Below are positions 3,450 through 33,441 of a stretch of 64,000 nt of DNA, piece after piece. The stretch is taken from NCBI GenBank assembly GCA_031408715.1, contig JANNWR010000153.1, positions 3,674 to 67,673 of the forward strand, written 5' to 3'. This stretch comes from a bacterium. GTDB taxonomy: Bacteria; Eisenbacteria; RBG-16-71-46. The translations under genes and the position numbers were made by a program. Each line of letters starts with the position of its first letter. The first letter of the stretch is position 1. The notes beneath the pieces were generated by a model. It had not been told where the DNA came from. It saw nothing but the letters and a program-made list of their open reading frames with translations, and made no database searches.

Positions 3450-4226
3450 ATGGCTCGTGTCTCGACACTCGATCACTGGGAGTCCTATTGGAAGGGACAC
3501 CAGCAGGATATCGACGACACCTACTCCACGGGCGGACGGCTCGTGCGCGAGGTGCTGGCGGATGGTCCCGTGGCAGGCAAGCTCGTGATGGAGATCGGTG
3601 CCGGTTCCGGCCGTGACCTCCTGGAGCTCGCCCGCATGGGCGCGCATGGCATCGTGCTCGATTATTCGCCGGCGTCGCTCGCGCTCGTGAAGCAGCAGTC
3701 GGTCGCACAGGGCATCCCGGTGATGTTCGTGCAGGCGGACGCGACGCGCATGCCGTTCCGCGATGGCGCGATCGACGTGTCGTTCCATCAGGGATTGCTC
3801 GAGCACTTCCGGGATCCGCGGCCGCTGCTGGCCGAGAACGCCCGCATCACCCGTTCGGGTGGGCGGGTGCTGGTCGACGTGCCGCAGACGTTTCACCTTT
3901 ATACCGTCATGAAGAACGTTCTCATCCTGGTGAACCGCTGGTTCGCAGGCTGGGAGACCCAGTTCACGGTGTCCCAACTGGAACGCCTCGTGTCCGAGTC
4001 CGGCCTCGAGGTGAAGCGCACCTATGGCGACTGGATGGTGCCGGGATTGTGGTATCGCGTCGTGCGCGAGGTGCTGAAGCGCGGATTCCAGCTCCGACTG
4101 CCGCTACATCCCGCCGGTCCCGGGTTCTGGGCGCGTGGCTGGGAGGGCTGGCGCGGCTGGCTGCGCGCTCAGCGTTGGGCGCTCAACACCTGTCACGTCA
4201 TCGGCACTGTGGGCCGGCGCCGGTGA
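3450..4226 (+). CDS. class I SAM-dependent methyltransferase
   Basis: Start is ATG 3450 inside ORF 3312..4226. SAM motif I is VMEIGAGSGRDLLELA, followed by the post-I acidic residue (VLDYS) and FHQGLLEHF. Confidence 0.75.
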   Translation: MARVSTLDHWESYWKGHQQDIDDTYSTGGRLVREVLADGPVAGKLVMEIGAGSGRDLLELARMGAHGIVLDYSPASLALVKQQSVAQGIPVMFVQADATRMPFRDGAIDVSFHQGLLEHFRDPRPLLAENARITRSGGRVLVDVPQTFHLYTVMKNVLILVNRWFAGWETQFTVSQLERLVSESGLEVKRTYGDWMVPGLWYRVVREVLKRGFQLRLPLHPAGPGFWARGWEGWRGWLRAQRWALNTCHVIGTVGRRR

Positions 4227-4237
4227 GGCGCTGAGCG

Positions 4238-5350
4238 GTGCATCTGCTCGCCATCAACTTCCGCGACCCGGGCCATCCCGAGGCGGGCGGGGCCGAACTG
4301 CACCTGGAACACGTGCTCTTGGACGCCGTGCGCCGAGGCTGGCGCGTGACCTGGCTGGCGAGCGGGTTCCCGCTCGGGGCGGCCGAGAGCGAGCACCGGG
4401 GCATGCGAGTGCTGCGCCGCGGCACCTGGTGGAACTTCAACTTCATGGTGCCGGGTGTGCTGAAACGGGAGTTCGCGGGTGCGGCCACCCCCGACCTCAT
4501 CGTCGAGGACGTCAACAAGGTGCCGTGCTTCACGCCGTGGTTCACACGCGTGCCGGTGGCCGTGATCATCCCGCACCTGTTCGGGACCACCGTGTTCCGC
4601 GAAGCCAACCCGCTCGTCGCGGCCTATGTGCTCGCGCTCGAGGCACTGTTGCCGTTCGCTTACGCGCGCTGCCGGTTCGTGGTCATCTCGGACAGCACGC
4701 GTGACGATGTGGTGATGCGCGGTATCCCGCGCGAGCGTGTGCGGGTGGTGGAGTGCGGGCTCGATCACGCTCGCTACCGCACCGACGCCAGCGTGGCGAA
4801 AGCCGCGCGGCCGACGCTGGCGTTCGTGGGCCGGCTGCGGCGCTACAAGGGACTCGACTGGGTCCTGCGTGCGCTGCCGGGTGTGCTGGCGCGTGTGCCG
4901 GACGCCCGGTTGCTGGTCATCGGCGACGGGCCCTACGGTGACACGCTGCGCGCGCAAGTGGTGCAGAGCCGGCTGGCGAACGCGGTCGAGTTCCTGGGCT
5001 TCGTGCCCGGAGCCGAGAAAGTGAAGCATCTGCAGTCCGCGTGGGCCGTGGTTCAGCCGAGCCCCAAGGAAGGCTGGGGGCTCACCGTGGTCGAGGCGTC
5101 GGCGTGTGGCACCGCCGTGGTGGCGAGTGACGCGCCGGGGCTGCGCGACTCGGTGCGCCGCGACGAGACCGGATTACTGGTGCCCTACGGCGACACCTCG
5201 TCGCTCATCGAGGCGCTCGTGCGCATTCTCACCGACACATCGCTGCGGCAGCGCATGGAATCCGCCGGAGTGCAGTGGGCGGCGCGCTTCCGTTGGGACG
5301 ACTGTGGCAGGCGCACCATCGATGGCCTCACGGGCGAGGGGGCGAGATGA
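4238..5350 (+). CDS. glycosyltransferase, GT-B fold (GT4 family-like)
   Basis: GTG start. The C-terminal half carries the GT4 signature KEGWGLTVVEASACGTAVVASDAPGLRDSV...GLLVP. Confidence 0.8.
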   Translation: MHLLAINFRDPGHPEAGGAELHLEHVLLDAVRRGWRVTWLASGFPLGAAESEHRGMRVLRRGTWWNFNFMVPGVLKREFAGAATPDLIVEDVNKVPCFTPWFTRVPVAVIIPHLFGTTVFREANPLVAAYVLALEALLPFAYARCRFVVISDSTRDDVVMRGIPRERVRVVECGLDHARYRTDASVAKAARPTLAFVGRLRRYKGLDWVLRALPGVLARVPDARLLVIGDGPYGDTLRAQVVQSRLANAVEFLGFVPGAEKVKHLQSAWAVVQPSPKEGWGLTVVEASACGTAVVASDAPGLRDSVRRDETGLLVPYGDTSSLIEALVRILTDTSLRQRMESAGVQWAARFRWDDCGRRTIDGLTGEGAR

Positions 5351-6342
5351 GTGCCGTGAAATCCCCGAAGACCGTCGCACTGCTGGCGCTCAAGGTACTC
5401 GTGAGCGTGGCGCTGTTCTGGTGGTTGTTCCACCGCCTGCAGTGGTCGACGATCGCACCCGTGCTCGGCCACGCCGATCCGGCATGGGTGAGCGCGGCCG
5501 CCGTGTTGTTGCTCGCGAGCCACCTGCTCGCCTCGTGGCAGTGGGGCCGCCTGCTCGATGCGGCCGGGATCGACCTGCCGTTCTGGAAGGTCGCGTCCTA
5601 CTACTATGTCGGACTGTTCTTCAACAACTTCCTGCCGGCGAACGTCGGGGGGGACCTGGCGCGCACGCTCGACGCGTCGCGGGCCGGCTCGACGCGTCCC
5701 ACCGCGCTCAGCACCGTGTTGCTCGACCGCCTGATCGGCACGGTGGCGCTCGGCGCGATCGCCGTGTTCACCACGCTGCCGGCGATCGACCACTTCCATC
5801 TGGCCGCCGCGTACGCGGGCGTGGTGGCGTTCTTCGCGCTCGCGGTGCTCATGTTGCGCGCCGTGCTCGAGCCGCGGGTGCTGGCCGCGCTGGAGCGTCT
5901 GCTCGCCCGGGTGGGTCTGGCGCGCATGAGTCCGGCGTTGGACGAGCTGTCCGGGCGCCTGGCGGCGTTTCGCGGGCGGCGCCGGTTGCTGTTCGAGCTG
6001 CTCGGTGTCGCGCTGATCGTCCAGGTCATGCGTATCGGTGTCCATGTCTTGTTCAGCCGCGCACTGGGGCTGCACATCGACACCGCCTACTTCTTCCTTT
6101 TCGTGCCGCTGCTGGCGGTGATAGTCTCCCTGCCCATCTCATTGAATGGCATCGGGGTACGTGAAGGGGCCGGGATCGTGTTGTTCGGCCTCGTGGGGCT
6201 CGACCGCACGAACGCGTTCGCGCTCCAGTTCGGCACGTATCTCGTCGCTTTCGGGGTCAGCTTGATCGGCGGGGTGGTATTCCTGGCGCGAATCCCCAGC
6301 CGCCGGGCCCAATCCCGTCATCCACGGAGGTCCACCGAATGA
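5347..6342 (+). CDS. UPF0104 / LPG-synthase-TM (MprF flippase-domain-like) membrane protein
   Basis: ATG 5347 overlaps the upstream stop (ATGA). The protein is polytopic and hydrophobic. It has the FFNNFLPANVGGDLAR motif typical of this 'flippase-like' family. Confidence 0.7.
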   Translation: MSAVKSPKTVALLALKVLVSVALFWWLFHRLQWSTIAPVLGHADPAWVSAAAVLLLASHLLASWQWGRLLDAAGIDLPFWKVASYYYVGLFFNNFLPANVGGDLARTLDASRAGSTRPTALSTVLLDRLIGTVALGAIAVFTTLPAIDHFHLAAAYAGVVAFFALAVLMLRAVLEPRVLAALERLLARVGLARMSPALDELSGRLAAFRGRRRLLFELLGVALIVQVMRIGVHVLFSRALGLHIDTAYFFLFVPLLAVIVSLPISLNGIGVREGAGIVLFGLVGLDRTNAFALQFGTYLVAFGVSLIGGVVFLARIPSRRAQSRHPRRSTE

Positions 6343-8936
6343 TCCCGACCCAGCGCTCTGCGGCGCTGATCTCGGTGTTCGTGCTGCTGTTCGCCGCCAC
6401 CGTCTACTTCCTCACGCTCACGCCGACCGTGCCGTTCTGGGATTCCGGCGAGTTCATCGCGGTCGCCACGATCCTCGGCATCCCGCACCCGCCGGGCACT
6501 CCTTTCTATGTGCTGCTGGCGCGCATCGCGACGCTGGTGCCGTGGGCGAGTATCGCGCAACGCGTCAATGCGCTGTCGGCCGTGGCCGCCGCGCTCACCG
6601 TGTGGCTCACCTACCTGAGCACGCTGCGCTTGATCCGGGTGGCGCAGGGCGACGACCGCAAGCCGTGGCAGGAGTGGGTGGCCGTGCTGGCCGCCGCCGT
6701 CGGTGCGCTCCTGCTCGCGTTCTCGGATGCGTTCTGGGGGAACTCGGTCGAGGCCGAGGTCTACCAGCTCATGAGCCTCGCACAGATCCTCGTGTTCTGG
6801 CTCGGGCTCAAGTGGTGGGAGGCGCACGGCAGCAAGCCCAGCGTCGGTCCGCTGCTGGTCGCGACCTACGTCATGTGGCTGTGCGTCGGGCTGCACCTCG
6901 GCGTCGGCATCATGGGCCTGCCGCTGTTCGTGTTCCTGCTGTTCGTCGATCGCACCATCGCGCTGCTGTTCCTGATGCCGTTCCTGTCGCTGCTGCGCGT
7001 TCCGGCCGGCCTCGAGAAGATGGCCGGTGCGGTCATCATGCTGAGCCTGGCGACCGCCGCCGGCATGGTGTGGAAGAAGAAGCTCAACGGCTGGGTCGTG
7101 CTGGGCGCGGCCGCACTCGCGCTGCCCGGGCTGCAGGCCTCGTTCTCGGACGCCAACTTCTCGATGCAGACGGCGATCCTGACGACGCTCGCGGTCATCG
7201 GGCCGATGGTGTGGCTGGCGCGCGGTCACCGCGAGGGGCGCGTGCTGTTGCTGTCGCTGTTCCTCATGGTGGCGGGCTATTCGACGCATCTCTACCTGCC
7301 GATCCGGGCCGCACAGCACCCGGCCGTGAACGAGGGCGCGCCTGCGACGTGGGACAAGATGCGCGACCTCCTGGAGCGCAAGCAGTACGGCGAGATGAAC
7401 CCGCTCGTGCGGCGAGCGCCCTTGATGGCACAGCTCGACAAGGAGTTCTGGCGCTACTTCCAGCGCCAGTGGCCGCTGTTCCCGACGAACCGGCTGTGGG
7501 GCGCGCTGCTGCCCATCGCACTCGGCCTGGCGGGCGGCTTCTGGCAGTTCCGCCGTGAGAAGAAGTCGTTCCTGCTGACGTTCACATTCCTCGGGCTCTC
7601 GACCGTTGGCATGATCGTGTTCTTGAACTTCACGGACCACGAGGTGCGCGACCGCGACTACTTCTTCCAGAGCGGATTCCACGCGTACTCGATGTGGATC
7701 GGACTGGGCGTGGCGTGGCTCATCCACTGGGTGCGCGAGTCGTTCGAGGGCAAGGACGCGCAGCGCATGGCCACGCTCGGCATCTCGGCGTTGCTCGGTA
7801 CCATGCCGGTGCTGCTCTTGGTGAACCTGTATCACACGCACGATCGCAGCCAGAACTACATCGCCCGCGACTACGCCTACAACATGCTGGCGAACCTGAA
7901 GCCGAACTCGTTCATGTTCACGAACGGCGACAACGACACGTTCCCGCTGTGGTACATCCAGCAGGTCGAGGGCTTCCGCAAGGACGTCCGCATCGTGAAC
8001 CTGTCGCTGCTCAACACCGACTGGTACATCCGCCAGCTGCGTGACGAAGAGCCCAAGGTGCCGATCACGCTCGACGACCGCACCATCGACATGCTCGGCG
8101 CCGGAGCGTTCCAGGACGAGAAGGGCAACATCACCTACACGAACGAGTTCATGGTCCACCATGTCCTCGAGCAGGCGCGCCGCGATTCCGGCTGGGTCAA
8201 GCAGCCGTACTTCGCAGTCACCGTGCCGCAGGACTTCGGCTACGGCGGTTCGTTCCGTCAGGAGGGCATCGTGCAGCAGGTCATGCACGACAGCACGCTC
8301 GCCGGCTTCGACGAGCCCGCGACGCACAAGGCGCTCTACGAGACCTACCAGTATCGCGGCCTGTTCAACCCCGACGGCTCGCTGGAGCCCAAGGTGTACA
8401 AGGATGACAACGCCCAGAACCTGTCGCGCAACTACGCCTTCGCGCACATGCAGCTGGCGCAGCATTACCGCCGCATCAAGGACTACCCCAAGGCCATCGC
8501 CGAGATGGAGCGCGTCACGCGCATGTTCCCCGACTGGGTCGAGATCCAGGCCCCGCTGGGCGGCATCTACCTGGCCGCGGGCGACAGTGCGAAGGCATGG
8601 GAGTTCTACGACGGACTGACCAAGCGCGCGCCGGGCAGCGCCGAGGCGCACTACTACCGGGGCGCCGCGCTCGGCTATCGCGGCAAGCCCGAGGAGGCGG
8701 TCGAGGAGTTCCGCCTGAGCCGCAAGCTCGACCCGAACTACGGCTATCCCTACTTCGACGAGTTCGGCACGCTGTGGGACATGGGACGGCGTGAGGAGGC
8801 GGTGCAGGTCCTGCAACTCTGGGTCGACCGCCATCCCAACGACGCTCAAGCCGCAGCCCAGTTGCAGGACGCGCGCGCCCGGCTCGGCATGGGCTCCGGC
8901 GGCTTCGGCTCTCCACCCGTGACCCGGCCCCGCTGA
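6339..8936 (+). CDS. DUF2723 (TMEM260-type) GT-C-like polytopic membrane protein with C-terminal TPR domain
   Basis: ATG 6339 overlaps the upstream stop. The N-terminus TVPFWDSGEFIAVATILGIPHPPGTPFY is the hallmark DUF2723 start. There are many hydrophobic segments. The C-terminal ~250 aa are TPR-like (AEAHYYRGAALGYRGKPEEAVEEFRLSRKLDPNY). Confidence 0.75.
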   Translation: MIPTQRSAALISVFVLLFAATVYFLTLTPTVPFWDSGEFIAVATILGIPHPPGTPFYVLLARIATLVPWASIAQRVNALSAVAAALTVWLTYLSTLRLIRVAQGDDRKPWQEWVAVLAAAVGALLLAFSDAFWGNSVEAEVYQLMSLAQILVFWLGLKWWEAHGSKPSVGPLLVATYVMWLCVGLHLGVGIMGLPLFVFLLFVDRTIALLFLMPFLSLLRVPAGLEKMAGAVIMLSLATAAGMVWKKKLNGWVVLGAAALALPGLQASFSDANFSMQTAILTTLAVIGPMVWLARGHREGRVLLLSLFLMVAGYSTHLYLPIRAAQHPAVNEGAPATWDKMRDLLERKQYGEMNPLVRRAPLMAQLDKEFWRYFQRQWPLFPTNRLWGALLPIALGLAGGFWQFRREKKSFLLTFTFLGLSTVGMIVFLNFTDHEVRDRDYFFQSGFHAYSMWIGLGVAWLIHWVRESFEGKDAQRMATLGISALLGTMPVLLLVNLYHTHDRSQNYIARDYAYNMLANLKPNSFMFTNGDNDTFPLWYIQQVEGFRKDVRIVNLSLLNTDWYIRQLRDEEPKVPITLDDRTIDMLGAGAFQDEKGNITYTNEFMVHHVLEQARRDSGWVKQPYFAVTVPQDFGYGGSFRQEGIVQQVMHDSTLAGFDEPATHKALYETYQYRGLFNPDGSLEPKVYKDDNAQNLSRNYAFAHMQLAQHYRRIKDYPKAIAEMERVTRMFPDWVEIQAPLGGIYLAAGDSAKAWEFYDGLTKRAPGSAEAHYYRGAALGYRGKPEEAVEEFRLSRKLDPNYGYPYFDEFGTLWDMGRREEAVQVLQLWVDRHPNDAQAAAQLQDARARLGMGSGGFGSPPVTRPR

Positions 8937-8946
8937 GCCCGCGATC

Positions 8947-9897
8947 ATGACCCACGCCCTCGTCACCGGCAGCGCCGGCTTCATCGGTTCGCATCTCACC
9001 GACCGCTTGCTCGCGGACGGTGTGCAAGTGACCGGAGTGGATGCGTTCACGGACTACTACGACCCGGCGCTCAAGCGCCGGAATCTGGAGTCCGCTCGCC
9101 GGCAGGCCGGCTTCACGCTGCTCGAACTCGATCTGGGCAGCGCCGATCTTGCCGCGTTGCCGGCGGTCGACGTGGTGTTCCATCAAGCAGCGCAGCCGGG
9201 TGTGCGCGCGTCGTGGGGCCGGGAGTTCGCGACGTATACGCAGCAGAACGTGTTCGCCACGCAACGACTGCTCGAACGCTACAAGGACACGCCGCTCGAG
9301 CGCTTCATCTATGCGTCATCGTCCAGCATCTATGGTGATGCCGAAAGCTATCCAACGTCCGAGAGTGTGCTGCCGCGGCCGTTCTCACCCTACGGCGTCA
9401 CCAAGCTGGCGGGGGAGCACTTGACGATGCTGTATGGACGCAACTTCGGGCTGCCGGTGACCGCGCTGCGCTACTTCACGGTCTACGGACCCCGGCAGCG
9501 CCCCGACATGGCGTTCCACCGGTTCTGCCGTGCGATGCTCGAGGGCGAGCCGATCACCGTCTACGGCGACGGCCGGCAGTCGCGCGATTTCACCTACGTC
9601 TCGGATGCCATCGAGGCGAACGTGCGCGCCTGGAAGCAGGCCGCGCCGCAGAGCGTCTACAACATCGGCGGGGGTTCGCAGGTCGAGGTCGTCGAGGTCA
9701 TCGCGCTGCTCGAGGCCAGCCTCGGAATCAAGGCACAGGTGAAGTTCGAGCCCCGCCCGCCCGGGGACCCGCTGCGCACGCGCGCCGATGCGACCCGGCT
9801 TGCCACCGATCTTGGCTACCGCACGACCGTGCCGATCCACGAGGGGCTGGCGTCCGAAGCCGAGTGGGCCCGCACGCTCTATGGCGGCGAGCGATGA
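8947..9897 (+). CDS. NAD-dependent sugar-nucleotide 4-epimerase (extended SDR; UDP-glucuronate/UDP-glucose 4-epimerase-like)
   Basis: It has a GSAGFIGSHL Rossmann motif. It also has the SSSSIYG and YGVTKLAGE (YxxxK) catalytic motifs. Confidence 0.85.
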   Translation: MTHALVTGSAGFIGSHLTDRLLADGVQVTGVDAFTDYYDPALKRRNLESARRQAGFTLLELDLGSADLAALPAVDVVFHQAAQPGVRASWGREFATYTQQNVFATQRLLERYKDTPLERFIYASSSSIYGDAESYPTSESVLPRPFSPYGVTKLAGEHLTMLYGRNFGLPVTALRYFTVYGPRQRPDMAFHRFCRAMLEGEPITVYGDGRQSRDFTYVSDAIEANVRAWKQAAPQSVYNIGGGSQVEVVEVIALLEASLGIKAQVKFEPRPPGDPLRTRADATRLATDLGYRTTVPIHEGLASEAEWARTLYGGER

Positions 9898-10844
9898 ACA
9901 CGGCCGTGGCACCGCGCCTTTCGGTCGTCGTCCCGGCTTACAACGAAGCCGAGAGCCTGCCCGAACTGCACCGCGAACTGGTGGTCGCACTCACGAACCT
10001 GAACATGACGTGGGAGATCCTGTACATCGACGACGGCTCGCGCGATGGCACGGACCGCGTCATCGAGACGATCTGTGCGGCTGAACCGCGCGCGATCGGC
10101 ATCCTGCTGTCGCGTAACTTCGGTAAGAGCGCGGCGCTTGCCACCGGCTTCAAGTCGGTGCGCGGGGAGTTCGTGTGCACCATGGACGCCGACCTGCAGG
10201 ACGACCCGAACGAACTGCCGCGGCTGTTCGCCGCGCTCGAGCAGGGACTCGATCTGGTCTCGGGCTGGAAAGTGAAGCGCCTGGACCCGATCACCAAGCG
10301 CTGGCCGAGCAAGCTGTTCAACCGGGTGACGAGCCAGGTGGCGGGTGTGCGGCTGCACGACTTCAACTGCGGCTTCAAGCTCTACCGGCGCGAAGTGGTC
10401 GAGGCGCTCGAGGTTTACGGCGAGCTGCACCGCTTCCTGCCGGCGCTGTCCCACTGGCGCGGTTTCCGGGTCGGCGAGGTGGGGGTGAACCATCGCGCCC
10501 GTCGCTACGGCCAGTCCAAGTTCGGCGCGTCACGCTTCGTGAACGGGTTCCTGGACCTGCTCACGGCGGCGTTCATCTCGACTTCGGCCCTGAAGCCGCT
10601 GCACGTCTTCGGCCGTATCGGGTTGCTGTTCCTGCTCAGCGGCTTCGGGCTCGCGGTGTGGTTCGTGGCGCAGTGGCTGCACGGTGATCCGTTGCGAGTG
10701 CGCCCGCTCATGCTGCTCGGTGCAGCCTGTGTGCTGCTGGGCATCCAGTTCATCCTGATGGGGCTCCTGGGCGAGATGATCGCGCACCAGTCGGCGCGCA
10801 ACGACTACCCGGTGCGCCGCCGCTTCAACGACGACCGCGCATGA
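9894..10844 (+). CDS. GT2 polyprenol-phosphate glycosyltransferase (ArnC/GtrB/DPM1-like) with C-terminal TM helices
   Basis: ATG 9894 overlaps the upstream stop. Motifs are VVVPAYNEAESL, YIDDGSRDGT and MDADLQDDP. The C-terminal tail is hydrophobic (LLFLLSGFGLAVWFV..., LLGAACVLLGIQFILMGLL). Confidence 0.8.
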   Translation: MNTAVAPRLSVVVPAYNEAESLPELHRELVVALTNLNMTWEILYIDDGSRDGTDRVIETICAAEPRAIGILLSRNFGKSAALATGFKSVRGEFVCTMDADLQDDPNELPRLFAALEQGLDLVSGWKVKRLDPITKRWPSKLFNRVTSQVAGVRLHDFNCGFKLYRREVVEALEVYGELHRFLPALSHWRGFRVGEVGVNHRARRYGQSKFGASRFVNGFLDLLTAAFISTSALKPLHVFGRIGLLFLLSGFGLAVWFVAQWLHGDPLRVRPLMLLGAACVLLGIQFILMGLLGEMIAHQSARNDYPVRRRFNDDRA

Positions 10845-12558: not shown

Positions 12559-12624
12559 CCCGCGTATGCGCCCCGAATCACGAGTCGCCCTGTCGATCCG
12601 GCCTGTCGGCCGCGGGAGCCGCGC

Positions 12625-17061: not shown

Positions 17062-17086
17062 GCGCTCGCGCGGGGGAGCGGTGACC

Positions 17087-21649: not shown

Positions 21650-21654
21650 TCCGC

Positions 21655-22779: not shown

Positions 22780-22796
22780 GACCCGGAGAACCCCGC

Positions 22797-25969: not shown

Positions 25970-25973
25970 TCCC

Positions 25974-28349
25974 ATGTCCCGACACCGCCGTTCTGTCCCG
26001 CTGTTCGTGACTCGCTCGATCGCGAGGCTGTGCGCCACGCTGTTCGTCACGTGGTCCGTTCTGGGATCCGCGGCGGTGGCGCATGCGCAGGGGCAATGGA
26101 CCTCGTACATCCATCACTCTTCGTGCAACGATCTCATCGTGCTCGGCGACACGGTCTGGGTGGCTTCGGGGCAGGCCGGCCTGCTGCGCTATTCGCGCCG
26201 CGATGGCACTTGGAGTTCGCTCACCCGCCAGCCCAGTGGCATCGCCGGCAATGACGTCCGGGTCCTGACTTACGACCGCACGGGCAACCTGTTCGCCGCG
26301 ATCCCGGGCAAGGGCCTGAGCCGGCTCGACACCGACGGCCGATGGTCGCTGATCAATGCTTTCGATGGCCTGCCGTCGGACACGGTGCTGTGCATGCGTG
26401 CGCAGGGTGACACGGTGTGGATCGGCACGACGCGCGGACTGGCCATCTATGACGGCAAAGCGCTCGCGGGATCGATCCCGGACCTCGGTACCACCTCGCC
26501 ATTCCTGGATGACCACATCAATGGGGTCGAGATCACCGGAGACTCGCTGTTCGTCTCGACTGCGATCGGCGTGCAGTTCGCGCGCCTGTCGGAACGGCTC
26601 CGGAACTGGACGACGATCAACCTCGGGCTGCCGGTCTTTGCCCCCCGTCCGAACAACGGCAGCGTGTCGCTGCAGATGTTCGGGATCGTGAGCGACGGCC
26701 GCACGGTGCTGGCGCTGGCCAGCGGGGCGAATCCCGACAATCCGGTGTTCAACACTTTCACGACGTTCCGCTGGTCTGGTTCCGAGGGGCGCTGGCGTTC
26801 CGACTTCCCGGCGAATGCTTCGGTACGCCGGCTGCGGGATGACTTCGGAGTGTTGCTCGCGACCACGCCCGGGGGTGTGTTTCGCTGGAACTCCCCGGGA
26901 GTCTGGACACTGCTGGCGGGTTCGCCGGCGACCGACAACGGCGACGCGGCCCAGTTGGAGGTGGCGGCGGACGCGAGTGGGCGCGTGTTCGCATCCACTG
27001 GAGGCCGATTGCTCGAGCAGGGCACTCCCGCTTGGCGGACTATCACGCCGCCCGGCCCCCCGGGAAACGACTGCCGCAATGTCGCGAATGTCGGGGGGAC
27101 CGTGTACGCCTGCTTCGAAGGCAATGGCGTGGGCCGGTTGCGCGGCGGTGTGTGGCGCACGTTCCCTGGCGGGGTACAGTGCCAACTGCCGGGTTGCAAC
27201 CCGGACACCACGTTCCTGAGTTCCAGTTTCCCCAAAGTCCTGCTCGTGGATCCGCTGGGTCCCAAGTGGATCGGGATCTGGGATGGCCCGCTGGCGAAGT
27301 TCGACGACACGGTGGAGCCGCCGCGGTTCACGAACATCCTGTTCCAGTCGGGCGACAACATCACCGTGCACCTGCACTCCACCACGCATGGCTACGCGGC
27401 CGACCTGAACCACCTGACGCCCGGCAAGGAGCCGGGCCGCTGGTTCGGGCTCGACACCGACGTCCAAGGAGACAACGCGTACAACCCGCTCGGGTTGGAC
27501 GTGTACGACACGACCGGCACGTTCATCCGGAACTTCGGCACGACCTATCCCGGGATCTACGAGGGCCTGATCCGCGCGCTCGTCGTGGACCGCAGCAACC
27601 AGATGTGGATCGGCTTTCGCAAGAACTCGACCGCGGGGCTGTCGACGTTCCCGGTCCCGCCGAGGCTCTCGGATCTTCCGACGATCACCGCCGTTCCGGG
27701 TTCGGGGGCGCTCAACGTGTTCGGGCTGGCGGCACACGGGGACTCGGTCTGGGTGCTGGCGGATGACGGGCTGCACCGCTTCGATCAGTCGGCCCGCTCA
27801 TTCGTGACAACGCTGCAGATCGCTGCGCCTCCGGCGCTGTTCAGTGTGCATCCGGTCGACGTCGGTCCGGACGGCACGGTCTACGCGGGTACGACGGGTG
27901 GTCTGCGCATGCACCGGCGCGGCGTCCCGGCGGTGGACTTCAATGCCGACAACTCGCCACTCGCGGATAACGAGGTGCGCAGCGTCTTTGTCGACAGCAA
28001 AGGGGTGGTGTGGATCGCGACCGCCGGCGGCCTGAACAGCTTCGACCCGGACTATCTGCCGCCGCCTCCGCCGCGGCTGAGTTCGCTCCGGATCCAGCTG
28101 TATCCCAATCCGGCGTGGGTCACGGGCATCGGGGCCGAGTTGCACCTGTCGGGCGGCGCCACTGCATACGAAGGCGAGATCTACGACCTGAACGGCCGCA
28201 TGGTGCATCGGTTCAAGAGTGGAGGGAACGGCCGGGTGATCTGGAACGGCCGGGACCTGGACCAGCGCTGGGTGGATCCAGGTGTGTACTTCGTGCGCGC
28301 GCGCGCGGGTGGCGCCGAGGCCACCGCTCGCGTGGTCCTGCTTCGGTAG
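25974..28349 (+). CDS. secreted beta-propeller repeat protein (two-component-regulator-propeller type) with FlgD-Ig/T9SS-like C-terminal domain
   Basis: A signal-peptide-like N-terminus ends in AAVAHAQG. Repeats of the form 'VWVASGQAGLLRY / VWIGTTRGLAIYDG / VWVLADDGLHRFD / VWIATAGGLNSFD' recur. The C-terminus is LYPNPA...IYDLNGRMVHRF...WNGRDL...PGVYFVRARAGG...RVVLLR. Confidence 0.75.
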   Translation: MSRHRRSVPLFVTRSIARLCATLFVTWSVLGSAAVAHAQGQWTSYIHHSSCNDLIVLGDTVWVASGQAGLLRYSRRDGTWSSLTRQPSGIAGNDVRVLTYDRTGNLFAAIPGKGLSRLDTDGRWSLINAFDGLPSDTVLCMRAQGDTVWIGTTRGLAIYDGKALAGSIPDLGTTSPFLDDHINGVEITGDSLFVSTAIGVQFARLSERLRNWTTINLGLPVFAPRPNNGSVSLQMFGIVSDGRTVLALASGANPDNPVFNTFTTFRWSGSEGRWRSDFPANASVRRLRDDFGVLLATTPGGVFRWNSPGVWTLLAGSPATDNGDAAQLEVAADASGRVFASTGGRLLEQGTPAWRTITPPGPPGNDCRNVANVGGTVYACFEGNGVGRLRGGVWRTFPGGVQCQLPGCNPDTTFLSSSFPKVLLVDPLGPKWIGIWDGPLAKFDDTVEPPRFTNILFQSGDNITVHLHSTTHGYAADLNHLTPGKEPGRWFGLDTDVQGDNAYNPLGLDVYDTTGTFIRNFGTTYPGIYEGLIRALVVDRSNQMWIGFRKNSTAGLSTFPVPPRLSDLPTITAVPGSGALNVFGLAAHGDSVWVLADDGLHRFDQSARSFVTTLQIAAPPALFSVHPVDVGPDGTVYAGTTGGLRMHRRGVPAVDFNADNSPLADNEVRSVFVDSKGVVWIATAGGLNSFDPDYLPPPPPRLSSLRIQLYPNPAWVTGIGAELHLSGGATAYEGEIYDLNGRMVHRFKSGGNGRVIWNGRDLDQRWVDPGVYFVRARAGGAEATARVVLLR

Positions 28350-28446
28350 CCGTCGCGATCGTGACGGCGCTCGCGCGCGGGCGCGGCTGGACCGGGGGGC
28401 AGGAGGCCCCCTGCGACATGGAACCACACGACCCGGCGGATCCTCG

Positions 28447-29487
28447 ATGAGCACCGGGGCCGCCACCGTGGTCGACCACGTTCCCGCCGGCTGGGACGCG
28501 CTGGTTCGCGCGGATACGTCGTCTTCGCCCTCACACCAGCCGTTGGTCTGGGAGGCATTCGCCGCCGTGTTCCCCGGATTCGAGTGGCAGCTGCTCGTGC
28601 ACCGCGAGGCGGGCGTCCTGACCGCTGGAGCGCCCGTCGTGCTGTCGCGCCGCGGGCCGTTCCGCTGGTTGCACGCGCTGCCGTGGTTGCTGAGTGCCGC
28701 ACCCGTCGCGGTCGCCGGCGCGCATGCCCGCAGCGATGTGGTGCTGGCGCGGAGCTTCGCCGAACTGGCGCGCGCACAGCGCGTGATCGGCGGCGAGTGG
28801 TCGTGCTATCGCCCGTGCGGCGATCCCGTCAGGTCCCAAGCGCTCGCCCACATACCGGGTACCACGCGGTGGGTCGCGACCGCGCTGATGCCGCTCGAGC
28901 ACGGTCTCGAGCCGCGCCGTGTCGCGATGGGGCGGAAGGCTCGCCAGGCACTCGATCAAGCGTCGGACCGCGGACTCGTGTTCGCAGAGGACGCGGACGC
29001 CCTGGAAGAAGTGTACGCGCTGCATGTCATGCAATCGCGGCACTGGCCGGGGCACCGGCCGTTGCCGATCGAGCTGTCGCGGCGATTGCTCGCAGCGAGA
29101 TCCGCGGGTGAACCGGTGGCGCGACTGTTCACCCTGCGCTCCGCGCGCGGACTGGTGTCGGGCACACTGGCTCTGGACGGCGCCCACGAGACATTCCCGT
29201 GGTGGGCCGGGACGCACTCCGAAGGGCGGCGGCTGCAGGCGTTCACATTGCTGCTGTGGCGCGTCGCGGAGTGGGCGGCGGCGCACGGTCGGCGGCGAGT
29301 GAATCTGGGCGCCAGCACGGGTCTCGAAGGCGTGTCGGCATTCAAGAAAGCGCTCGGTGCCGAGATCCTCGAGTACCCGGTGCACCGGCTCGATGCGGGG
29401 AACGCGAACGCTGCCGGCCGTCTGCTCGCGAGCGTGCAGGCGTGGCACCGCCGCGGCCGCACGAGCGGTGGAGCGGAGCCCGCGTGA
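28447..29487 (+). CDS. FemAB/CelD-like GNAT-fold acyl(aminoacyl)transferase
   Basis: Start is ATG 28447 inside ORF 28282..29487. The pattern RKARQALDQASDRGLVFAEDADALEEVYALHVMQSRHW...WWAG...LLLWRVAEWAAAHGRRRVNLGAS resembles BioF2-like/CelD/FemAB acetyltransferase domains. Confidence 0.6.
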   Translation: MSTGAATVVDHVPAGWDALVRADTSSSPSHQPLVWEAFAAVFPGFEWQLLVHREAGVLTAGAPVVLSRRGPFRWLHALPWLLSAAPVAVAGAHARSDVVLARSFAELARAQRVIGGEWSCYRPCGDPVRSQALAHIPGTTRWVATALMPLEHGLEPRRVAMGRKARQALDQASDRGLVFAEDADALEEVYALHVMQSRHWPGHRPLPIELSRRLLAARSAGEPVARLFTLRSARGLVSGTLALDGAHETFPWWAGTHSEGRRLQAFTLLLWRVAEWAAAHGRRRVNLGASTGLEGVSAFKKALGAEILEYPVHRLDAGNANAAGRLLASVQAWHRRGRTSGGAEPA

Positions 29488-30557
29488 GGATCGCGACCTT
29501 GTCGAACGCCGCGGTGGTGCACACGACACGCTGGGTCGAGCACTTCCGTGCGCGCGGTCATGACGTGCGCTTGTTCTCACTCGAGCCCGGGCCGGCGCTT
29601 GCGTACGATGTGCGACTGCCGAGCGCTCCGCTGCCCGGTGCGTTGCGCTACCCACTCGCCCTGCCGCGGTTGGTGCACGAGCTCGACCGCTTCGCTCCGG
29701 ACCTGATCGACGCGCACTTCGTGCCCAACTACGGTCTGCTCGGCGCGCTGTGCGGCCGCCGCCCGCTGTCGGTGGCGGCGTGGGGGAGTGACCTGCTGCT
29801 CACCGCCGGCCGGGACCGGTGGCAGCGCCTGCGCGCACGTTTCGTTCTGCGTCGCGCCGATCTGGTGTTGTGCGACGCTCGCAATCTGGCGGCCGCCGCG
29901 CTCGCCGTGGGAGCGCGGCCCGCCAGCGTGCGCGCGTTGCCGTGGGGAGTGGACCGGGCGCGTTTCGTCCCGGCGAACCATCGCGAACGCGGACTGCTAC
30001 TCTCGACGCGCATGCACGAGGACATCTACGACATCCCCACGTTGCTGAGAGCCGTGGCCCCGGTGCTGGCCGAGCACCCGCACGCCCGCTTGGTCGTGGC
30101 CGGAGAGGGTTCGCGCCGTGGCAGTCTCGAGCGGCTTGCCGCCTCGCTGCTTCCCGCTGGACGCTTTCAGTTCGTCGGGCGCATCTCACCCGTGGACCTC
30201 GCGGGCTGGCTCGGACGCGCCGAGGTCTTCCTGTCGGCCTCGCTTTCCGATTCCACGTCGCAGTCACTGTTGGAAGCCATGGCCGCGGGTGCCGTGCCGG
30301 TGGTCAGCGACATCGAGGGCAATCGCGAGTGGGTGACCGATGGGGACGGTGCTCGGTCGTTCGCGATCGGTGATGTCGCTGGTTGCACCCGTGCGATCGG
30401 ACATGCGCTCGCCGATCGGGTGTGGGCGGATGCGGCTCGTGCCCGAAACGCAGCCGTGATCGCGGCGCGCGCCGACTGGCCGACGAACCTGGCGCGGATC
30501 GAGCGCTGGTTCGGGTTGCTCGCGGCCGGCCGGCCGCTGCCAGCGGAGGGCGCGTGA
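29484..30557 (+). CDS. glycosyltransferase, GT-B fold (GT4-like)
   Basis: GTG 29484 overlaps the upstream stop (GTGA). The C-terminal signature is SLSDSTSQSLLEAMAAGAVPVVSDIEGNREWV. Confidence 0.8.
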   Translation: MRIATLSNAAVVHTTRWVEHFRARGHDVRLFSLEPGPALAYDVRLPSAPLPGALRYPLALPRLVHELDRFAPDLIDAHFVPNYGLLGALCGRRPLSVAAWGSDLLLTAGRDRWQRLRARFVLRRADLVLCDARNLAAAALAVGARPASVRALPWGVDRARFVPANHRERGLLLSTRMHEDIYDIPTLLRAVAPVLAEHPHARLVVAGEGSRRGSLERLAASLLPAGRFQFVGRISPVDLAGWLGRAEVFLSASLSDSTSQSLLEAMAAGAVPVVSDIEGNREWVTDGDGARSFAIGDVAGCTRAIGHALADRVWADAARARNAAVIAARADWPTNLARIERWFGLLAAGRPLPAEGA

Positions 30558-31858
30558 GGCGCCTGCTCGTGATGGCCTACTTCTATCCTCCTCTGGCGGG
30601 CGGTGGCGTGCACCGCGTCCTGTCGTTCACACGTCATCTGCCGCGGCACGGCTGGGCATGCACCGTGGTGTGCGCCGGCGAGCAGGACTACTGGGTGCGG
30701 GACGAGTCGCTGCTCGCGCGCGTGAGCGCGGAGACCGAAGTGATCCGCGTTGCGGGTGGCAGCGCGTTATCGGCACTCCTGCGCATGCGCGCGGCGAGCA
30801 CGGCGGGGCGGCGCTCGAGCTCGAGGTTCGCGGCGCTGCGCTCGCTTTCCGACTGGTTCCTACTGCCTGACTCCTACGTCGGGTGGGCGGCGCGCGCCGG
30901 CCGGGCGGCCGCAGCCCGCATCGCGGCCGGTGGTGTGGACGCCGTGCTCTCGACTTCGCCGCCCGACAGCGTGCACCTGGCCGCGGAGCGGATCACGCGT
31001 GCGCCGGGCTCGACGAGCCGCAGGCTGCCATGGATCGCCGACTTCCGGGACCCGTGGATCGGTTCGAATTTTCGCACTCCTCCGACCGCGTGGCACGCCG
31101 CTCGCCACGCCGCCATGGAAGCGCGCGTCACCGGGACCGCCGACCTGGTCGTGACCGCGTCACGCACGCACCACGACGAGCTGGCGTCACGAACCTCCGC
31201 CCGCCCGGCGCGGTTGATTCATCTTCCCAATGGGTTTGAGCCGCTGAGCCCAGAGCGAGCGCCGTCGGAGCGCGACCCGAACGCCTTCCGCATCGCGTTC
31301 ACCGGACAGTTGTCGCTCATGGAGGATGCCGGCACACTGCTCGCCGCCGTTCATCAGGTGCTGCAACGTGAACCTGCTTCGCGCGGGCAGCTCCGCGTCG
31401 ATCTCGCCGGGCCGTACGACGACAAGTGGGCCGCGCGCACGTCGGCGCTGGGCCTGAGCGATGTGGTCCGGTTTCCGGGGCAGATCGCACACGAGGCCAC
31501 ACGCGAGTTGCAGCGAACCGCCGACGTGTTGGTCCTGTGGAAGCCGACGGGAGGACGTTTTCGCACCATGGTGCCCGGAAAACTTTACGAGTACCTCGAC
31601 TCCGGCCGTCCGCTGCTGGCGCTGCTGCACGCCGAGGACGAAGCCGCGGGGCTGGTGAAACGAGCGGGCGGGACGCTGGTGCCGCCAGGTGACGTGGGCG
31701 CGCTCGCGGACGAGTTGTGCGTGCGATGGCGGCGCTGGCGGGACGGGGAGCGAACGGCGGACCAGCGAGTAGCCTGGCTCGGCGACTACGAGCGCGCGTC
31801 GCTCGCGGCGACCCTGGCGGGTGCGCTCGACGGGCTCATGGCAGAGCCGTCCCGGTGA
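30554..31858 (+). CDS. glycosyltransferase, GT-B fold (GT4-like)
   Basis: GTG 30554 overlaps the upstream stop. The N-terminus is LLVMAYFYPPLAGGGVHRVLSF. The C-terminal part is MVPGKLYEYLDSGRPLLAL. Confidence 0.7.
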   Translation: MRRLLVMAYFYPPLAGGGVHRVLSFTRHLPRHGWACTVVCAGEQDYWVRDESLLARVSAETEVIRVAGGSALSALLRMRAASTAGRRSSSRFAALRSLSDWFLLPDSYVGWAARAGRAAAARIAAGGVDAVLSTSPPDSVHLAAERITRAPGSTSRRLPWIADFRDPWIGSNFRTPPTAWHAARHAAMEARVTGTADLVVTASRTHHDELASRTSARPARLIHLPNGFEPLSPERAPSERDPNAFRIAFTGQLSLMEDAGTLLAAVHQVLQREPASRGQLRVDLAGPYDDKWAARTSALGLSDVVRFPGQIAHEATRELQRTADVLVLWKPTGGRFRTMVPGKLYEYLDSGRPLLALLHAEDEAAGLVKRAGGTLVPPGDVGALADELCVRWRRWRDGERTADQRVAWLGDYERASLAATLAGALDGLMAEPSR

Positions 31859-33441
31859 GCGCGCTGACACCCGAACAGCGTTTCGAGCGCTTGGGCTTCG
31901 CGCTCGCCGTGATGCTGTGTGCCGCTCTGGCATGGCCATTGCGCCACTACGTCACGGACGACACGTTCATCCATCTGCAATACGCACGTCACCTCGCGCA
32001 CGGGGAGGGCTTCGTCTTCAACGTCGGCGAGCGGGTGTACGGCAGCACGAGTCCGCTCTGGGTGGTGTTGCTGGCCGATGGCATCGCCATGGGCCTCGAC
32101 GGCCTGCTCGTCAGCAAACTGCTGGGTGCCGCCGCCACGCTCGCGGCGTTGTTCCTGTGGTGGCAGCTCGTCCAGCGCACGCTCGGTAGCCCGTGGCTGC
32201 GCGTCATGTCGACGCTGGTGTGGGCGTCGCACGCCTGGATGTCGCGTTGGTCGCTGTCCGGCATGGAGACGCCCGTCGCGGTGGCCTTGGTGATCGGCGG
32301 CTTCGTGGCGTTCACGTCGAGCGATCCGTGGGGCTCACGTCCGCGCAAGGCAGCGCTTTTGTGGGCGCTCGCGGCGCTGACCCGTCCCGAGTGCGCGCTG
32401 CTGCTCGTGCTGTGGGGCGCACTCATGATCGCCGAGGACGGCGTCACGGATGGACTGATGCGTGCCGTCCGCGGGCTGTGGCCGGCGGCACTCGTCTACG
32501 GCAGCTGGCTGGCGTTCGCGCGAGGTTACTTCGGGACATTCTGGCCCAACACGCTCGCGGCCAAGGCCGCTGGCGGGGAGGGAGTGGCCTACGTGCTGGA
32601 ACAACTCGGACGTCAGGCCGGAATCGTCGGCGCGACCGATGGCGTGCTGATGCTCGTGTTGTTCGCAGCCCTCCTGTACTGCGCCCGCCTCGGTGCACGG
32701 CCGCGCTGGCGGCCCGCCGTGCGGCTGCTGCCCTGGGCCTGGCTCGTCACGGTGCCCGTGCTCTACACGGTGCGTGGCGTGCCCGTGCTGTCCCGGTATC
32801 TCGTGCCGCTGCTACCCGTGCTGGCGTGGCTGGCGTGGCGCGCGCTCGACCGGGCCGCCGGTCCGCGTGCGAACTGGCAGCCCGGTGCGATGGCGGCAGA
32901 GCCCGAGGTCCAGATGCAGCGCCGCGCGCGCCTCGCGATCGTCGCCGGCACCGCACTCGCGCTGATCGTGATCGCGCAGAACATCGTGGTGTGGCAGCGC
33001 GTCGTGCGGCCGCAGGTGGAATCGTTCAGTGCCGGCATGCACGATAGCCTGATCCCGTGGGGGCGCTGGTTCGATCTTCATACCCAGCCCGATGCGGTGG
33101 TCGCCGCACCGGACATCGGCGCACTGGGCTACTACGGGCAGCGGCGTGTGGTCGATCTCGCCGGGCTCGTCACGCCCGAGATGATCCCCATCCTCCGGGA
33201 GTTGCCGCCCGAGGTGGCGGTGGCGCGCTTCGCGTTCGCGAGCTTCTCGCGGCCCGACTTCCTCGTCGATCGCGCTCCCGTGGCGTGGGACCTGCAAACG
33301 CGCAGTCCGTGGAGCGCCGCACTCGTGCCACTCGGCTATGCCTCGCTGCCGAACCTGGGCGTGGCGCGGCCCGGCGAGGCCGTTTACTCGTTCTACCGCA
33401 TCGACTGGGCCACCTACGACTCGCTCGCCGCAACGCGCTGA
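31855..33441 (+). CDS. putative GT-C fold membrane glycosyltransferase (N-terminal DD motif type)
   Basis: GTG 31855 overlaps the upstream stop. The 528-aa protein has ~10+ hydrophobic helices in its N-terminal part. The first-loop motif is HYVTDDTFIHLQYARHLAHGEGFVFNVGERVYGSTSPLWV. The C-terminal domain is soluble. Confidence 0.55.
   Translation: MSALTPEQRFERLGFALAVMLCAALAWPLRHYVTDDTFIHLQYARHLAHGEGFVFNVGERVYGSTSPLWVVLLADGIAMGLDGLLVSKLLGAAATLAALFLWWQLVQRTLGSPWLRVMSTLVWASHAWMSRWSLSGMETPVAVALVIGGFVAFTSSDPWGSRPRKAALLWALAALTRPECALLLVLWGALMIAEDGVTDGLMRAVRGLWPAALVYGSWLAFARGYFGTFWPNTLAAKAAGGEGVAYVLEQLGRQAGIVGATDGVLMLVLFAALLYCARLGARPRWRPAVRLLPWAWLVTVPVLYTVRGVPVLSRYLVPLLPVLAWLAWRALDRAAGPRANWQPGAMAAEPEVQMQRRARLAIVAGTALALIVIAQNIVVWQRVVRPQVESFSAGMHDSLIPWGRWFDLHTQPDAVVAAPDIGALGYYGQRRVVDLAGLVTPEMIPILRELPPEVAVARFAFASFSRPDFLVDRAPVAWDLQTRSPWSAALVPLGYASLPNLGVARPGEAVYSFYRIDWATYDSLAATR

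Follow-up and report, generated by a model that had tools for sequence, protein, structure and literature searches.

The 64,000-nucleotide stretch analysed here (the window), from contig JANNWR010000153.1 of a bacterium assigned to the Eisenbacteria, carries between positions 3450 and 33441 a glycosylation locus of ~30 kb: 23 back-to-back genes, g1 to g23, all on the plus strand. Because the window has a GC content of 68%, genes were called from third-position GC (GC3) and the tiling of open reading frames (ORFs), and both bear out the 23 genes of an earlier reading of this DNA (the original prediction). The interval 15335–17061 at first looked like a single ORF; the frame plot resolves it into a GT2 glycosyltransferase (GT) gene (15335–16246) and a methyltransferase gene (16243–17061) in different frames. 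Minus-strand ORFs of high GC3 within the locus (26447–27391, for example) were set aside as artefacts of antisense frames in a genome of 68% GC.

The genes are tightly packed. The widest intergenic gaps are 97 nt (28350–28446) and 66 nt (12559–12624), both figures reproducing those given previously, and there are twelve certain 4-nt overlaps (at 5347, 6339, 9894, 10841, 11527, 13788, 15335, 16243, 18094, 29484, 30554 and 31855) and a single 1-nt overlap at 25253 (g17/g18). A thirteenth 4-nt overlap is possible at 22776, depending on the start of g17; the database-called start is 22797, in agreement with a 100%-identical database protein. Thus the tight packing first described holds, but the twelve start/stop overlaps then counted become 13–14. 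Co-directionality is likewise real but not peculiar to the locus: the series of plus-strand genes starts at base 2, continues to ~55757 and takes in the rib genes, the locus itself, the division and cell wall (dcw) genes and recG. The genes, with the one directly upstream and the spacer that ends the locus, are as follows.

2713–3438, plus strand: metallophosphoesterase, a possible 24th member (Pfam Metallophos_2); stops 11 nt before g1
3450–4226, plus strand: g1, class I S-adenosylmethionine (SAM) methyltransferase (Methyltransf_11/25)
4238–5350, plus strand: g2, GT4 (GT-B) glycosyltransferase (Glycos_transf_1, 131 bits; NCBIfam matches to generic GT4 only)
5347–6342, plus strand: g3, stand-alone MprF-flippase-like membrane protein (LPG_synthase_TM, 131 bits, and the TIGR00374 flippase-like domain, both above cutoff)
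6339–8936, plus strand: g4, TMEM260-like GT-C with a C-terminal TPR domain (Pfam TMEM260-like, PF11028, 136 bits; TPR repeats)
8947–9897, plus strand: g5, NAD-dependent sugar epimerase/dehydratase of the short-chain dehydrogenase/reductase type (Epimerase, 192 bits; no NCBIfam equivalog at cutoff)
9894–10844, plus strand: g6, GT2 polyprenyl-phosphate-sugar synthase of the ArnC/GtrB/PgfS type (NCBIfam ArnC and PgfS models)
10841–11530, plus strand: g7, sugar-1-phosphate nucleotidyltransferase, HddC- or mannose-1-phosphate guanylyltransferase-like (NTP_transferase; NCBIfam 128 and 99 bits, both below cutoff)
11527–12558, plus strand: g8, GHMP sugar kinase, HddA-like (HddA model, E = 1.9e-84 over the full length)
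12625–13791, plus strand: g9, GT4 glycosyltransferase (Glyco_trans_1_4, 96 bits)
13788–15338, plus strand: g10, probable GT-C, PMT/ArnT/Alg9-like (~8 transmembrane (TM) helices; weak family matches)
15335–16246, plus strand: g11, soluble GT2, rhamnosyltransferase/GlfT1-like (frame plot; Glycos_transf_2; TIGR01556, E = 2e-18)
16243–17061, plus strand: g12, SAM methyltransferase (Methyltransf_23/11); start overlaps g11 by 4 nt
17081–18097, plus strand: g13, weak GT-B (Glycos_transf_1, E = 4e-5, below cutoff)
18094–19536, plus strand: g14, MOP-family (Wzx-like) flippase (Polysacc_synt_3, 50 bits against a cutoff of 23; ~10 TM helices)
19574–21649, plus strand: g15, AsnB-type glutamine amidotransferase of the WbpS/eps_aminotran_1 family (Asn_synthase, 252 bits)
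21655–22779, plus strand: g16, GT-B, TuaH-like (Glyco_trans_1_4; TuaH, E = 2e-25, below cutoff)
22797–25253, plus strand: g17, YfhO-like GT-C (YfhO C-terminal match, 34 bits, above cutoff)
25253–25969, plus strand: g18, short GT2, a polyprenyl-phosphate-sugar synthase resembling dolichol-phosphate-mannose (DPM) synthase (match to PDB 5mlz)
25974–28349, plus strand: g19, secreted double beta-propeller of 791 aa with a type IX secretion system (T9SS) C-terminal domain (CTD), PorZ-like (Reg_prop repeats, TIGR04183)
28447–29487, plus strand: g20, FemABX/VimA-family acyl or aminoacyl transferase (Acetyltransf_6, 56 bits)
29484–30557, plus strand: g21, GT4 glycosyltransferase (Glyco_trans_1_4, Glyco_transf_4 and Glyco_trans_4_2)
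30554–31858, plus strand: g22, GT4 glycosyltransferase (Glyco_trans_1_4, 43 bits)
31855–33441, plus strand: g23, GT-C with an AftB/ArnT-like fold (AlphaFold model and Foldseek)
33442–33777, plus strand: spacer between g23 and mraZ, ending the locus (hairpin, promoter-like site, three repeats); mraZ begins at 33778

Pfam and NCBIfam searches uphold most of the original inventory: three GT2 enzymes (at 9894, 15335 and 25253), a Wzx-like flippase (g14) and an MprF-flippase-like protein (g3), two methyltransferases, an epimerase, an HddC/HddA-like pair, an AsnB and a FemAB-like enzyme. Two corrections are needed. The GT-B transferases, put at about eight, number six (g2, g9, g13, g16, g21 and g22), and the inventory passed over g19: the interval 25974–28349 encodes not a transferase but a secreted double propeller sorted by the T9SS. 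Of all the clues to what becomes of the product, this PorZ-like protein is the most specific.

Central to any interpretation is the identity of the four polytopic proteins g4, g10, g17 and g23, all of which had been taken for GT-C enzymes. Sequence searches of g10, g17 and g23 against the PDB gave no match, and GT-C status was therefore drawn from structure prediction (g17 and g23) and from Pfam scans across the family (g10). The AlphaFold model of g23, built with 46 homologs (pLDDT 90.8, pTM 0.91), has GT-C proteins as all of its top 30 Foldseek matches in the PDB, with AftB the best (E = 1e-9, TM-score 0.57), followed by ArnT, ALG9/12, AglB and PglB. The model of g17 (pLDDT 84.9) behaves similarly: its top 24 matches are all GT-C, ArnT being the best (E = 8e-8), then AftD, STT3, PglB and Emb. 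The structural neighbours of both proteins thus belong to the fold originally proposed. The notion that g23 or g10 might be a Wzy- or WaaL-like polymerase or ligase was rejected; neither Wzy nor WaaL occurs among the g23 Foldseek matches listed.

For g4 the evidence is homology. It aligns with the human protein O-mannosyltransferase TMEM260 (PDB 9rql; E = 2.6e-20) over residues 13–176 and retains both D52 (in WDSGE) and H67 (in PHPPG), which cryo-EM of TMEM260 identified as donor-sugar-binding residues; the TPR domain of TMEM260 recruits extended acceptor peptides. By analogy with this TPR architecture, g4 is a candidate protein O-glycosyltransferase, most plausibly acting on proteins. A literature search gave no described function for bacterial TMEM260-like (DUF2723) proteins. 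The case for g10 is built from recurrent weak profile matches: as a single sequence it matches PMT (E = 0.007) and the LA_3751/2 family (E = 6e-8), and across 18 family members there are sub-threshold matches to PMT in five (best 9e-6), to Glyco_transf_22 in five (best 5e-5) and to GT87 in one (3e-7). The g10 family profile found nothing in the PDB, and hhalign of g10 against g23 was not significant (probability 4%). We regard g10, on these profile matches, as a probable GT-C; the assignment stands on predicted fold for g17 and g23 and on TMEM260 homology for g4.

All four proteins have an acidic motif in the first extracytoplasmic loop, as placed by models and hydropathy. In g23 it is D35-D36, part of an invariant T34-D35-D36-T37 (TDDT) after the first helix; in g17 it is the invariant D54, in the first loop; in g10 the near-invariant D30, within 'GSDEVT'; and in g4 the aspartate matching D52 of TMEM260.

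Two of the three GT2 enzymes are, as first suggested, of the polyprenyl-phosphate-sugar synthase type. Along its entire length g6 aligns with the ArnC (E = 1e-58) and PgfS (E = 2e-43) models, neither score reaching its equivalog cutoff, and it ends in TM helices (approximately residues 242–296). Over its full length g18 matches the archaeal dolichol-P-mannose synthase 5mlz (E = 5e-31), with ArnC and GtrB next; its NCBIfam matches are PpgS, AglJ and a Dol-P-hexose transferase. From these co-located synthases we infer that all four GT-C enzymes use donors linked to polyprenyl phosphate or polyprenyl diphosphate, on the extracytoplasmic face. No GtrA-family flippase was matched in the locus. The candidates for flipping a lipid-linked monosaccharide are g3 (~8 TM helices), which overlaps both g2 and g4 by 4 nt, and g14, of the MOP family; in three-component systems a MATE-family flippase moves the polyprenyl-phosphate sugar. 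As judged from its domains, g3 is a candidate flippase for a lipid-linked sugar or a glycolipid, for which the MprF-like HexF, a proposed glycolipid flippase, offers a precedent (PMC10128005). Three sets of genes, g3/g4, g5/g6 and g17/g18, form contiguous, translationally coupled modules, and the coupled sets g3–g6 and g17–g18 have the appearance of complete multi-component glycosylation modules, a type that has been reviewed in Gram-positives and demonstrated for O antigens.

Many homologs exist of g23, g17 and g10, and named records containing them are mostly Candidatus Eisenbacteria, including a closed 4.16-Mb chromosome. We mapped the window's proteins by tblastn onto loci fetched from genomes and metagenomes. 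Among 116 related loci with at least two syntenic genes there was not one break in collinearity, and every gene of the locus except g13 was found wherever a contig spans its position (g1, for example, in 36 of 36 spanning loci, with a median identity of 73%). The sole dispensable member, g13, occurs in 25 of 37 spanning loci and is absent from 12. For most genes of the locus median identity lies between 58% and 76%; the exceptions are g22 (55%) and the two fastest-evolving genes, g20 (48%) and g19 (40%). Among the best conserved are g8 (76%) and g18, at 76% in the main clade and 67–75% in three of four divergent loci. The flanking housekeeping genes ribBA, ribH and rsmH have medians of 75%, 66% and 59%.

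The chromosomal slot is also fixed. Upstream lie ribE, ribBA, ribH and the phosphoesterase; downstream lie mraZ, STAS, rsmH, ftsL, ftsI, murE, murF, mraY and murD. In more than 100 relatives the orthologous locus is flanked by these riboflavin and dcw genes, and not by wzy, wzc or wza. In most genomes the loci for surface polysaccharides rank among the most variable parts; this locus, invariant and conserved at housekeeping-level identity, is unlike a strain-variable O-antigen or extracellular polysaccharide (EPS) cluster. The metallophosphoesterase at 2713–3438 lies directly upstream of g1 in all 30 loci that span the junction, and may be part of the pathway, perhaps as a phosphatase acting on sugar phosphates or lipid pyrophosphates.

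Some of the loci surveyed come with their own anomalies. Five contigs of metagenome-assembled genomes (L012, L019, L037, L039 and L046) carry an Eisenbacteria-type locus in the same order, with ~51–76% identity, under the labels Verrucomicrobiia, Limnocylindria, Saccharimonadaceae, Terriglobales and Udaeobacter, probably as a result of mis-binning. In L053, L060, L120 and L139 genes fall into multiple in-frame pieces (g4 in L053, most genes in L139), and these look like assembly frameshift errors and not real pseudogenes.

What the locus lacks has been as prominent in its interpretation as what it contains. No ORF tested in the 64-kb window gave a Pfam or NCBIfam match to Wzy_C, Wzz, Poly_export, O-antigen ligase (WaaL), ABC2, ABC_tran or Bac_transf. 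The sole trace of Wzy is a match of Wzy_C_2 to the dcw gene ftsL (E = 0.008; 16.6 bits against a 28.5-bit cutoff), and the only member of the Glycos_transf_4 family in the window is the dcw gene mraY. Nor were polymerase, co-polymerase, exporter or ligase genes seen in the flanks of relatives. The absence of Wzy, Wzz, outer-membrane polysaccharide export (OPX) protein, WaaL, ABC exporter and priming enzyme first reported for the locus therefore extends to the whole window.

The missing primer makes a poor case for an unconventional start to the pathway, as deeper comparison brings out. Two deep-lineage contigs (L137, 5732–7867, and L139, 10001–11884) carry, inside the orthologous locus, a fusion of GT2, CoA_binding_3 and Bac_transf domains (a WbaP-type priming enzyme; Bac_transf 50.5 bits against a cutoff of 27) that is placed between the orthologs of g18 and g19, directly ahead of the PorZ-like gene. 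This deepest lineage has an rsmH only 35% identical, with Wzx downstream and AsnB and g23 missing; the second contig, L139, has g8–g12 and g16–g18, followed by the fusion. By tblastn this fusion phosphoglycosyltransferase has no homolog in the window or in 137 other loci. Because deep relatives carry a WbaP-type primer within the locus, the pathway is probably undecaprenyl-primed here too: its cytoplasmic stage probably proceeds on undecaprenyl diphosphate, and this genome would encode the primer somewhere other than in the locus. Taken alone, the lack of wzy or of a primer in a single locus says little; it was the comparison with deep relatives that recovered the primer.

The analysis shows what the genes are, the GT-C folds, the types of synthase, and how far order and sequence are conserved. 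It brings us to the following proposal, which we consider evenly poised between right and wrong: that a single, fixed envelope glycoconjugate of Candidatus Eisenbacteria has its core pathway in this locus, is made by a hybrid cytoplasmic and periplasmic route and is left unpolymerised. In the route as we infer it – its step order, donors and acceptors, and the role of g19 – sugars would be activated in the cytoplasm by g5, g7 and g8. Six GT-B transferases and one soluble GT2 would then assemble an oligosaccharide on undecaprenyl phosphate at the cytoplasmic side, primed by a phosphoglycosyltransferase that in this lineage would be encoded outside the locus. The oligosaccharide would receive methyl groups (g1, g12), an amide on a uronic acid (g15, a candidate uronamide-forming enzyme by its family) and an aminoacyl or acyl group (g20). 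Next, g14 and g3 would flip to the periplasmic face both the oligosaccharide and two polyprenyl-phosphate-monosaccharide donors, the products of g6 and g18, and there the four GT-C enzymes, using the lipid-linked donors, would complete the glycan and glycosylate acceptors. Of these, g17 would work with g18, and the acceptors of the TPR-bearing g4 would most likely be proteins. Since Wzy and Wzz are not present, there would be no polymerisation step. Finally, the PorZ-like g19 would leave via the T9SS and probably bind the finished glycan at the cell surface.

This proposal keeps part of the suggestion with which the locus was first presented, namely that it decorates proteins or lipids in the periplasm instead of building a conventional polysaccharide. 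The GT-C enzymes, the synthases and the flanks favour that suggestion; the missing primer is a poor argument for an unconventional start, and the class of acceptor, conditional throughout, is best supported for g4. Among the window's extracytoplasmic proteins we found no convincing Ser/Thr-rich disordered segments of the kind that serve as streptococcal acceptors.

Several points weigh against the proposal. The rib and dcw neighbours are equally syntenic, and collinearity alone is no proof that 23 genes form a single pathway. A database search with the relatives' priming enzyme returned seven matches, none attributable to main-clade Eisenbacteria, and because this lineage's primer was not found there is still room for a lipid acceptor other than undecaprenyl. 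The genes wzy, waaL and wzz, and those for exporters, could be elsewhere in the genome, the search having covered 64 kb. The assignment of g10 to GT-C depends on sub-threshold matches. Every match to a pathway enzyme falls below its equivalog cutoff (the HddA score of g8, for instance, is 284 bits against a 600-bit cutoff), and for this reason specific sugars are not fixed. Lastly, the whole account rests on sequence and predicted structure, and the phylum is uncultured.

What becomes of the product is a separate question, and here three readings compete. The most specific and most novel is that the conserved core – Wzx, WbpS-family amidotransferase, GT-B, YfhO-like GT-C, DPM-like GT2, PorZ-like protein, VimA-family protein and GT4 – makes the Eisenbacteria counterpart of the saccharide that links T9SS cargo to anionic lipopolysaccharide (A-LPS) in P. 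gingivalis. On this reading, which we advance tentatively and think rather unlikely to hold as it stands, the product would be a primed, non-polymerised oligosaccharide ending in an aminoacyl-uronamide sugar, which g19 would present to a PorU-type sortase that attaches CTD-bearing cargo. The precedent is published: PorZ of P. gingivalis passes A-LPS to the sortase PorU (PMC8545088), and cargo is amide-linked to a seryl-acetyl-glucuronamide sugar whose synthesis needs VimA and WbpS, the latter encoded beside the Wzx PorS (PMC7468200, PMC13086638).

The evidence begins with g19 itself, which has the architecture of PorZ: a Sec signal peptide, two beta-propellers and a type A CTD (TIGR04183, above the curated cutoff), within a range of ~750–790 aa. 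A profile of five g19 orthologs matches the double propellers of Bacteroides hybrid two-component sensors (HTCS; E = 5e-42) and P. gingivalis PorZ (5m11; E = 1e-15), the latter collinearly over residues 595–742 in both. PorZ (NF052228) is the best NCBIfam match in all five g19 orthologs and in all ten distant full-length relatives, but its curated equivalog cutoff of 260 bits is never reached (g19 scores 70.7 bits, the best distant relative 215 bits). We therefore describe g19 as PorZ-like in architecture and family, as far as profiles can tell, and not as a demonstrated ortholog.

The company that g19 keeps points in the same direction. g20 matches TIGR03019 (E = 3e-8) and g15 matches TIGR03108 (386 bits), each below the curated cutoff; VimA matches the first of these families, and WbpS and PGN_1234 belong to the second (PMC7468200). 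In the PDB, g20 matches an aminoacyl-tRNA-dependent peptide synthase (E = 3e-6), and its solved relatives are only of that kind. The adjacency of wzx and asnB (g14–g15) repeats the porS–wbpS arrangement. The P. gingivalis linker (A-LS) is primed by WbaP (PMC7468200, PMC13086638), and in deep relatives it is a WbaP-type gene that lies immediately upstream of the g19 ortholog. The association of g19 with glycan genes persists down to 24–30% identity: contigs with such distant g19 relatives keep, in order, a YfhO-like protein, a GT2, the propeller, an Acetyltransf_6 protein and a GT4, and three of four of them adjoin mraZ/STAS (directly upstream) or reach back to Wzx, AsnB and GT-B.

A second protein of the window, encoded on the minus strand at 55887–57686, resembles DUF6851 and vanadium-chloroperoxidases and ends in a T9SS CTD 37% identical to that of g19. 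Its CTD is independent evidence that the organism uses a T9SS.

On the other side, the locus has neither the WbpA/B/E/D enzymes nor the CE4 deacetylase VimE – no dehydrogenase, aminotransferase, WbpD-type acetyltransferase or CE4 domain was found in it – and the pathway of P. gingivalis makes no use of GT-C enzymes. No T9SS core genes were seen within the 64-kb window. The deep lineage is without AsnB, and the relative nearest to canonical PorZ sits among lnt and rnf genes, not glycan genes. A literature search on the envelope or T9SS of Eisenbacteria found nothing. Spelled out in full – a cargo-anchoring glycan of a non-Bacteroidota T9SS, built as a single non-polymerised, undecaprenyl-primed linker with an aminoacyl-uronamide sugar, completed by GT-C enzymes in the periplasm and handed over by g19 to a sortase – the claim is more doubtful again. 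Were it true, periplasmic GT-C chemistry would be part of T9SS surface attachment, and bacterial TMEM260-like enzymes would gain their first functional context.

The two remaining readings are weaker. An ordinary Wzx/Wzy locus for O antigen or EPS, with wzy, wzz, waaL or export genes and the primer located elsewhere and with GT-C enzymes adding Gtr-type side-chain sugars after polymerisation, strikes us as distinctly improbable. Wzx, transferases, methyltransferases and an AsnB-type amidotransferase are common O-unit gene content, and the locus has them all, with seven cytoplasmic transferases. Moreover, the organism probably makes lipopolysaccharide (LPS), given a lipid A acyltransferase at 60483–61478; O antigens are well known to be decorated by Gtr-like and three-component systems; and a priming phosphoglycosyltransferase exists in relatives. 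These points have to be set against an order and content that are invariant across the 116 loci at housekeeping-level identity, against the lack of polymerase, co-polymerase or export genes in the window and in the flanks of relatives, and against a complement of four GT-C enzymes and two donor synthases that surpasses described decoration systems; we know of none with so many of each.

Least of all do we favour a lipoglycan of the mycobacterial lipomannan/lipoarabinomannan (LM/LAM) type, in which GT4 enzymes would glycosylate a membrane phospholipid or glycolipid anchor on the cytoplasmic side and, once flipped by g3, the anchor would be extended in the periplasm by the four GT-C enzymes from polyprenyl-phosphate sugars, with no need for Wzy or an undecaprenyl-diphosphate primer: this would explain a locus without primer, polymerase or exporter, has in HexSDF a glycolipid precedent for an MprF-like flippase adjoining a GT4, and draws on the AftB-like structure of g23, the AftD and Emb matches of g17, the DPM/Ppm1-type synthase g18 and weak matches of the GT4 genes to glycosyl-phosphatidylglycerol synthase, but it must contend with a Bac_transf primer in the orthologous locus of deep relatives, a MOP-family Wzx-like flippase, a TMEM260-like TPR enzyme that points to protein acceptors and GT4 matches that are generic.

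The boundary between the locus and the dcw cluster is of interest in its own right. The 336-nt spacer between g23 and mraZ contains a palindrome, CTGCAC...GTGCA (33627–33641), forming a terminator-like hairpin and followed by a T-run; then a promoter-like site at 33675–33703 with a TTTTGAC –35-like box; and then three GTGG(G/T)G repeats at 33712, 33722 and 33732, spaced by 10 nt, which resemble the MraZ operator boxes of a P_mra promoter. Consensus scans of the window for promoters and terminators showed no enrichment over shuffles, and Rfam detected no RNA family anywhere in it; the spacer sites gain weight because palindrome, promoter-like site and repeats are all kept in five orthologous spacers. 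This makes it probable that the dcw cluster is transcribed from a promoter of its own, with the glycosylation block ending at 33441.

Beyond the boundary, an STAS-domain gene (34224–34685; anti-sigma-factor-antagonist-like) stands between mraZ and rsmH, overlaps mraZ by 4 nt and is kept in every relative examined, deep-branching ones included. The FtsI-type penicillin-binding protein of the cluster (36128–38281) has two PASTA domains; the organism otherwise looks diderm, as its lipid A acyltransferase and T9SS-tagged proteins indicate. At 45989–48267 ftsQ directly follows murC, and neither murB nor ddl was seen there or elsewhere in the window.

Conserved to the same degree as the division genes, and with a fixed place next to them, a glycan pathway of this kind probably defines the surface of the whole phylum – one that is widespread, though uncultured, in soil and sediment – much as arabinogalactan defines the Mycobacteriales. 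The locus offers a natural test bed for bacterial TMEM260-like (DUF2723) and YfhO-like GT-C enzymes in a probable diderm, suggests how the anchoring of T9SS cargo might work outside the Bacteroidota, and supplies a set of markers with which the glycan could be traced in metaproteomes and metaglycomes.

There exist clear parallels with described systems, and equally clear departures from them. With the three-component systems – GtrA/GtrB/GtrV, CsbB/GtcA/YfhO, ArnC/ArnT, streptococcal Pgf, GtrB/PgtC2 and the GT136 pentofuranose systems – the locus shares a GT2 synthase (g6, g18), a flippase candidate (g3, g14) and an extracytoplasmic GT-C (g4, g10, g17, g23), and the placing of an epimerase beside a synthase (g5–g6) recalls PgfE–PgfS of the streptococcal system. 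Whereas those systems have one GT-C and one synthase, here there are four and two; there is no GtrA-type flippase; and the modules lie inside a 23-gene cluster with seven cytoplasmic transferases that is invariant across the phylum, unlike an accessory or phage-borne decoration.

With the A-LPS/PorZ pathway of P. gingivalis the locus shares the PorZ-like g19, the VimA-family g20, a Wzx-adjacent WbpS-family enzyme (g14–g15), GT4 transferases and, in deep relatives, a WbaP-type primer. It differs in lacking WbpA/B/E/D and VimE, and in having GT-C enzymes for which the P. gingivalis pathway has no counterpart. Furthermore, the P. gingivalis genes are scattered, and porZ is not described in a glycan locus, whereas here the genes are clustered.

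The arabinogalactan and LAM pathways of the Mycobacteriales (EmbA/B/C, AftA–D, PimE, Mpt, Ppm1 and decaprenyl-phosphate-arabinose (DPA)) resemble the locus in joining several polyprenyl-phosphate-fed GT-C enzymes to a conserved, lineage-defining glycan. The emb–aft genes of those pathways are clustered. Identity, however, is ~12–20%; UbiA/DprE-type arabinose donor genes are missing from the locus; and the present organism looks diderm (with LPS and T9SS markers), has a Wzx-like flippase and has relatives with a Bac_transf primer. Human TMEM260 (PDB 9rql, 9rqm and 9rqn) has in common with g4 the N-terminal GT-C core, the D52 and H67 positions and a C-terminal TPR domain; the alignment, confined to residues 13–176, stops short of the luminal Rossmann-like domain with the catalytic D441, and the carrier and sugar used by g4 are presumably different. 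The presence of four GT-C enzymes and two synthases in one conserved 23-gene locus sets it apart from known multi-component systems of extracytoplasmic glycosylation.

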